A DNA stretch of 64,000 nt, taken from the NCBI RefSeq assembly GCF_057098645.1, contig NZ_CM169472.1, one strand, 5' to 3'. Under the pieces are notes generated by a model that saw only the letters and a program-made list of their open reading frames with translations, did no database searches and was not told the origin of the DNA. Shown here piece after piece: positions 60,896-61,137 of the stretch; positions within the stretch are counted from its first letter, which is position 1; the number at the start of each line of letters is the position of its first letter. A program made the translations under genes and the position numbers.

Positions 60896-61137
60896 GGCAT
60901 ATCCTTACAACTTAAAAAAGCAAAAGGGCCGCAGATGCGACCCAGGTTTTGCTGATAAACAGATTTAATAGTCAATGAGTGTGCAGAATGTTCCCGCAGG
61001 CCCAATTCGTTAGAGGATCGAGGTGAGAGTAATTTTTCACGCCAGTGCTGGCCTGTTCCCCTCACCCTAACCCTCTCCCCAAAGGGGCGAGGGGACCGTC
61101 CGTGCACACATTATCTATTATCATCAATAACGAACGA

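Follow-up and report, generated by a model that had tools for sequence, protein, structure and literature searches.

One family of intergenic repeats has been described under three names, as BoxC (Bachellier, Gilson, Hofnung and colleagues, 1990s), as PIT (Hoyne/Maher 2000) and as TMECO (Holder et al. 2015, PMC4666352). The TMECO consensus is CCCTCNCCC-N3-6-GGGNGAGGG-N3-GGGNGAGGG, that is, CCCTCNCCCN3-6GGGNGAGGGN3GGGNGAGGG, and oligonucleotides of the type A mm were found by CD and NMR to form an intrastrand purine-motif triplex with a Tm of 74 °C, with no evidence of a stable triplex in vivo (Holder 2015, PMC4666352). The same report described the motif as having no association with transposons, phages or plasmids and small deletions as frequent at TMECO elements; PIT elements, in published tests, neither acted as promoters or terminators nor affected RNA polymerase (Holder 2015, PMC4666352). 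The published TMECO catalogue gives coordinates only and does not name the recA-recX spacer as a locus.

REP/BIME sequences are likewise palindromic intergenic repeats that lie in 3' UTRs beside terminators and are polymorphic among strains, and REP elements in comparable positions can both stabilise the mRNA upstream of them and attenuate the genes that follow (bioRxiv 10.64898/2026.03.23.713779). MITEs such as ERIC/IRU and Correia are small, non-coding and intergenic, have inverted ends and form a long RNA hairpin if co-transcribed, and in all of these respects they resemble the element described here. We know of no parent IS for BoxC, nor of any link between BoxC and a REP-associated transposase; boxC insertions at BIME sites are said to have been reported by Bachellier et al. 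in 1997.

The window analysed here is a stretch of 64,000 nucleotides. Its closest genomes were O145:H28/NM Shiga-toxin-producing strains (99.7% over 22 kb), with O157:H7 next at 97.6%, and the DNA is, as judged from these matches, that of an O145:H28-like STEC lineage. According to the open reading frame coordinates, the recA-recX spacer occupies 60896-61137, which is exactly the 242 bp between the recA stop and the recX start given in the original prediction. The corresponding spacer of K-12 MG1655 was 68 bp long (recX ends at 2822639 and recA starts at 2822708), in keeping with the length of under 80 bp stated in the original prediction, and the alignment with K-12 gave a net difference of 174 bp where about 170 bp of extra DNA had been proposed. 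Common to the two sequences are the terminator and the recX leader, which are identical to those of K-12, and also the four bases that immediately precede the recA stop; between these shared parts, 16 bp of the K-12 allele were replaced, not split, by 190 bp. The features of the locus are listed below in the order of their window positions, with the evidence for each in brackets.

60395..60895, minus strand: recX coding sequence, 166 aa (open reading frame list; recX annotation in strain 95-3192, whose region is identical, and in strain 55989)
60896..60913, minus strand: recX leader with the ribosome-binding region, same as in K-12 (K-12 alignment, no difference from the recX start to the far end of the terminator)
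60914..60943, minus strand: native recA intrinsic terminator, hairpin GGGTCGCATCTGCGGCCC at 60943..60926 and tail TTTTGCTTTTTT at 60925..60914 (terminator scan, 78/78 species, RNA folds)
60944..61133, no strand: segment unlike K-12, 190 bp vs the 16 bp TTGTGTATCAAACAAG of K-12, net +174 bp (K-12 alignment; filled alleles of 701 bp vs empty alleles of about 527 bp, 5426 genomes)
60949..60991, no strand: left arm TTGCTGATAAACAG...GTGTGCAGAATG, an imperfect inverted counterpart of the right arm, with an outer end that corresponds to the family motif GAGATTGCTAACAAAC (inverted repeats, family alignment)
60992..61029 (about), plus strand: decayed partner BoxC in the family's type B position, consensus match lost (aligns to CCCCCTCGCCCTTTCAGGGAGAGGGTCGGGGTGAGGG of intact copies; the TMECO regular expression fails)
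61041..61052, no strand: central small palindrome GCCAGTGCTGGC between the BoxC units, at the tip of the long hairpin (family alignment; RNA and DNA folds)
61058..61093, minus strand: intact BoxC/PIT/TMECO unit, type A mm, CCCTCGCCCCTTTGGGGAGAGGGTTAGGGTGAGGGG (exact match; consensus regular expression; same as MG1655 TMECO nos. 7, 11 and 15; orthologous to 55989 TMECO no. 238)
61094..61127, no strand: right arm GACCGTCCGTGCACAC...TTATCATCAA (inverted repeats; family alignment)
61138..62199, minus strand: recA coding sequence of 353 aa, beginning MAIDENKQ and with its stop codon at 61138-61140 (open reading frame list, translation check, annotation in matching genomes)

The extra DNA is identified by its sequence as a copy of the BoxC repeat, alias PIT or TMECO. 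The G/C-rich palindrome that the original prediction had quoted for the minus strand was found exactly at 61058-61095, where the plus strand reads CCCCTCACCCTAACCCTCTCCCCAAAGGGGCGAGGGGA, and the chance expectation from 100 shuffles was 0 matches. A regular expression of the TMECO consensus gave a single match, on the minus strand at 61093..61058, and the 36-mer core was identical to TMECO nos. 7, 11 and 15 among the 23 listed for MG1655, all three being of type A mm. Like its relatives, the unit is intergenic, lying between the recA stop and the recX start, and the other copies examined were all intergenic as well. The family is also a dispersed one: the search for further copies, which had been proposed as a check, located matches to a 196 bp query at 15 sites in the median E. 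coli genome (5399 genomes), with one BoxC copy only in the 64 kb window.

The recA-recX spacer of strain 55989 (3033470-3033711) was identical to that of the window at 242/242 positions, and entry no. 238 of Table S8 in Holder 2015 (NC_011748, 3033667-3033632) is the same 36-mer, that is, the BoxC unit of the 55989 spacer. The recA-recX copy is already catalogued and its family long known, and the locus carries little weight as a discovery: the repeats have been described since the 1990s and this copy stands in a published catalogue. Compared with the described family, the window copy agrees in the consensus, in its identity to K-12 copies 7, 11 and 15, in its intergenic position, in the inverted A/B pair with a central loop and in its presence or absence according to strain; it differs in nothing essential, although its type B partner is decayed. 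The comparison with REP/BIME sequences gave a different result, as the REP (PU) consensus, for example GCCGGATGCGGCG or GCCTGATGCGACGC, was absent from the spacer and matched the window only once, at 44369, whereas the palindromic units of the spacer belong to BoxC and have GGGNGAGGG-type G/C tracts. An Rfam covariance-model scan of 60300-61700 at a permissive threshold returned only a chance-level match (18.4 bits vs a gathering threshold of 40, E = 0.84).

Matches to the BoxC family were also seen on plasmids, with 9 to 28 plasmid-borne cases among tens of thousands, for an element that is described as chromosomal. One of them was a perfect 38 bp match to the BoxC core at 1627-1664 of the E. 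coli plasmid NZ_CP074792.1 (154.7 kb).

The insert as a whole is a palindromic composite of about 180 bp, arranged in the order of an arm, the decayed BoxC partner, a central loop, the intact BoxC unit and a second arm. The GTGTGCA...TGCACAC repeats of the original prediction are a perfect 7-nt pair (60979-60985 and 61103-61109) that lies inside longer imperfect arms; in particular, 60966-60995 pairs with 61091-61120 over 30 nt with 70% complementarity, and the outer arms, 60949-60958 and 61118-61127, pair over 10 nt with 90% complementarity. To place this arrangement in the family, the insert was aligned with four intergenic copies (yggN-yggL, gldA-yijF, ygfF-gcvP and bacA-cca), and the alignment revealed a common unit of about 180 bp consisting of an outer arm, a type B BoxC, the central palindrome GCCAGTGCTGGC, an inverted type A BoxC and the other arm. 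This alignment, with the K-12 pairs for comparison, showed the inverted A/B arrangement in the window, where type A is intact, the place of type B is held by the decayed copy and GCCAGTGCTGGC is kept. As a single strand the composite folded as a long imperfect hairpin, with z = -5.06 as RNA and z = -3.41 as DNA. Two open reading frames cover parts of the insert, one of 71 aa with a GTG start (60892-61107, minus strand) and one of 51 aa that runs through BoxC (61045-61200, plus strand); neither was considered a credible gene.

Upon searching complete E. coli genomes with a 701 bp query across the locus, we found the filled form in 1634 of 5426 (30%), the remainder, including K-12 and O157:H7, having the short form; the insert alone as query was found in 1632 genomes. 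The window's spacer is accordingly shared neither with K-12 nor with most other E. coli, a finding that could have gone against the original prediction and did not. The polarity of the change was examined in the recA-recX region of 78 Enterobacteriaceae species representatives. The distance from the recA stop to the terminator hairpin was 18-25 nt in 54 of the 78 species and 37-974 nt in the other 24, and the hairpin itself, GGGYNGC...GCNGCCC, was kept in 78/78 species at 23-50 nt, mostly 27-33 nt, 5' of the recX start. Nearly all of the length change was located upstream of the terminator, and only a few species had 41-50 nt between the hairpin and recX. Because the gap of 18-25 nt is found in 54/78 species and the hairpin in 78/78, the short spacer is ancestral and the long spacer the product of an insertion.

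As to the age of the event, Escherichia sp. E1V33 was found to have an orthologous 242 bp spacer in which the insert, the decayed partner included, was identical to that of the window at 193/199 positions (97%), while its flanking genes were 95.6% (recX) and 97.6% (recA) identical. Additionally, Escherichia sp. MOD1-EC7003 contained a more decayed remnant of the composite at the same recA-proximal junction. Since the orthologous copy in E1V33 is equally decayed and as diverged as the flanking genes, the BoxC insertion is, as dated by this comparison, old and not recent.

The junctions of the insert were less regular than its internal structure. No convincing target-site duplication or flanking direct repeat was found at the window copy, and the comparison with K-12 gave no clean empty site. 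The pentamer TCGTT was present on both sides of the remnant only in MOD1-EC7003; the recA-proximal junction of the window reads TCGTTCGT. The other BoxC loci that were checked for clean empty sites were similar in this respect: at yggN-yggL and gldA-yijF the alternative allele was a REP pair and not an empty site, at ygfF-gcvP it lacked the whole ygfF gene, and no target duplication was definable at these loci. The original prediction of a small repeat or MITE-like insertion was thus correct as to a dispersed repeat that is absent from K-12, with the short form ancestral among the 78 species, and it did not hold as to the type of element, which is a known BoxC repeat without a clean target-site duplication, with 16 bp replaced.

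We consider it highly probable that in an Escherichia ancestor a BoxC composite became inserted between the recA stop and the terminator of recA, that one of its units decayed, and that the terminator and the recX leader were left untouched in what became a near-neutral allele. By this account the composite entered the gap when it measured 18-25 nt, one of the two BoxC units decayed afterwards, and the filled site persisted as the common allele now seen in 30% of complete E. coli genomes; candidate routes of spread are single-strand- or hairpin-dependent insertion beside terminator hairpins and recombination between alleles. That a recently active MITE, with terminal inverted repeats and a cognate transposase, moved into the spacer is very unlikely. 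Such an event would fit the imperfect terminal inverted arms that are present in the insert, the small size of an element with no credible open reading frame and many dispersed copies, a site that is filled or empty depending on the strain, and the short sequences at the junctions, that is, TCGTT on either side of the MOD1-EC7003 remnant and TCGTTCGT beside recA in the window, but a MITE is expected to leave a clean empty site, and here 16 bp of K-12 were replaced and the window copy showed no convincing target duplication. The status of the insert as a MITE is not supported by these junctions, the motif is not linked to transposons, phages or plasmids (Holder 2015), and the decayed partner common to the window and the diverged E1V33 orthologue points to an old event, which refutes a recent arrival for the window copy. 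It is extremely unlikely that the long spacer is ancestral and that the K-12 form arose by deletion after excision of the palindrome. The 16 nt of K-12, TTGTGTATCAAACAAG, do resemble the arm TTGCTGATAAACAG loosely by eye, and small deletions are frequent at such elements (Holder 2015), but the resemblance is weak, the K-12 sequence itself occurs in E. whittamii and in the left part of the E. albertii spacer, and the short architecture of 18-25 nt in 54/78 Enterobacteriaceae species, from many genera, refutes the deletion at the level of the family.

A scan of 60800-61300 revealed a sole terminator-like site, which is on the minus strand and consists of GGGTCGCATCTGCGGCCC (60943..60926) and then TTTTGCTTTT, and this is the hairpin with a T-run that had been noted upstream of recX. 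A second terminator motif was not found in the spacer, where the BoxC hairpin on the recA strand is followed by GGGGAACAGGCC with no direct U-run, and the promoter scan of the insert and spacer found no sigma-70-like promoter, such as one specific to recX. The literature bears out the original prediction in that recX depends on transcripts reading through the recA terminator, and in it recX expression is attributed to about 10% readthrough (PMC3542578, in a passage citing the original study). In thermodynamic RNA models of the long allele the terminator stem was kept at P of at least 0.95. We also found AGCAAAA just 5' of the terminator hairpin on the minus strand, a perfect complement of UUUUGCU in the U-tract (60919-60953); the hairpin and tail form an extended, near-symmetrical palindrome in the long allele only, K-12 having ACACAA at this place. 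When the model was cut at the hairpin end, the equilibrium probability of the terminator stem was 0.98 for the long allele vs 0.19 for the K-12-like construct. Because of the AGCAAAA/U-tract pairing and of these stem probabilities, a change in termination efficiency is possible. Any effect of the insert on recX dosage is probably small.

The insert might be regarded as a functional cis-regulatory module that retunes recA-recX, be it through stabilisation of the recA mRNA, through terminator readthrough, or through a triplex or G-quadruplex on the non-template strand. This reading is unlikely, even though the insert is inside a co-transcribed unit just 5' of the terminator whose readthrough yields recX, its RNA is strongly structured (z = -5.06), the terminator stem is predicted to be sturdier in the long allele, and REP elements can act in such a way. 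The 7-nt A-rich complement of the U-tract also occurs at the terminator of an unrelated insertion allele in E. albertii, and the BoxC allele is kept in 30% of the genomes and across Escherichia species, both of which would fit such a role; yet 70% of E. coli and most genera do without the insert, one BoxC unit was left to decay, and the presence of unrelated repeats (ERIC, REP) at the same place in other lineages points to tolerance rather than to sequence-specific selection. The absence of a promoter or an additional terminator motif and the inactivity of PIT elements as promoters or terminators, and towards RNA polymerase, in published tests argue in the same direction. As the recA terminator downstream of it is intact, the insert most likely represents an ordinary and near-neutral polymorphism among strains. 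As such, the element would be transcribed in a recA 3' UTR that is longer by 174 nt and would fold there as a long imperfect hairpin; it would itself act neither as a promoter nor as a terminator, would influence recA mRNA stability, readthrough and RecX dosage little or not at all, and may be a selfish or near-neutral structural repeat that is carried passively. The recA-recX transcription unit thus contains a spacer whose length commonly varies in nature (68 vs 242 bp, long in 30% of complete E. coli), a point of modest practical value wherever SOS regulation, recX dosage or the behaviour of the recA 3' UTR is compared across strains.

The gap just 5' of the terminator was found to be a recurrent site of sequence gain, with longer gaps in 24 of the 78 species, while the terminator and recX module is fixed. 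Its occupants include BoxC in some Escherichia, REP/BIME sequences in E. albertii and in another Escherichia, and an ERIC element in Silvania; whereas the module of terminator and recX leader is strictly conserved, invasion by repeats of various families has been tolerated time and again in the few bases 5' of it. BoxC composites are closely linked to BIMEs at two of the other BoxC loci, yggN-yggL and gldA-yijF, where some strains have a BoxC pair and others, including K-12, a REP pair at exactly the same site (compared over 1455-1690 vs 226-408 of the retrieved regions for yggN-yggL and over 1403-1732 vs 174-447 for gldA-yijF). The BoxC allele was present in 65 genomes at yggN-yggL and in 641 genomes at gldA-yijF. 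Identical outer arms, GATTGATAACAAA ... TTTGTCATC (CCAGATTGATAACAAA ... TTTGTCATCGCCCG), flank the two alleles of yggN-yggL. The gldA-yijF site abuts a terminator-like hairpin of gldA, and its downstream flank repeats AAACTCCC of that hairpin. These observations could be read together as meaning that the stretch separating the recA stop from its terminator is a recurrent landing pad for palindromic repeats, that BoxC and BIME are swappable cargo between shared arms, brought in beside terminator hairpins through one mechanism, and that the long allele shifts the RecA:RecX ratio; we regard this as improbable. If it were true, the long allele would be a natural cis-regulatory variant with altered SOS braking in about 30% of E. 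coli.

The individual spacers of the other lineages differed in their construction. The E. albertii spacer is 238 bp long (1263-1500 of the retrieved region) and consists of 20 K-12-like nucleotides, then a degenerate second copy of the terminator hairpin, GGGACGTATCTGCGAC, two paired REP/BIME repeats, TTTGTCAGCAAAACCT and lastly the terminator in intact form; it shares with the window's BoxC allele the 11 nt that precede the terminator, CAGCAAAACCT. In MOD1-EC7003 the spacer extends over 1022 bp (479-1500 of the retrieved region), in which the recA-proximal BoxC remnant is followed by about five tandem units, each composed of a terminator-like hairpin GGGGCGCATTTGCGGCCC, arms and a REP pair. 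The pattern suggests a BIME array whose amplification included a copied terminator hairpin. The spacer of Silvania confinis, 195 bp long (about 1306-1500 of the retrieved region), contains an ERIC-like sequence, GAGTCCCCAGGAGCTTAC...GTGACTGGGGTGAGCG, between the recA stop and the terminator.

At ygfF-gcvP, about 2400 genomes are homologous to K-12 only as far as the outer border of the BoxC composite (query 373-375). In strain U13A, the one of these genomes that was retrieved, the whole ygfF gene is absent, and the repeat marks the border of a larger region of presence or absence.

Elsewhere in the window, positions 1-2224 are variable among strains, as the O145 strains with 99.7% identity match from 2225 on and O157:H7 from about 914-917. 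A 609 aa open reading frame on the plus strand (58525-60354) runs antisense through nearly all of alaS and is most likely an artefact of codon usage, with no gene present. An ARAGORN call of a tRNA-Arg(TCG) at 56714-56785 on the plus strand overlaps a minus-strand tRNA-Arg and is probably a mirror artefact. The minus strand at 56040-56901 contains four tRNA-Arg(ACG) genes and one tRNA-Ser(GCT) gene, and the spacing of the tRNA-Arg copies differs from that in strain 55989.
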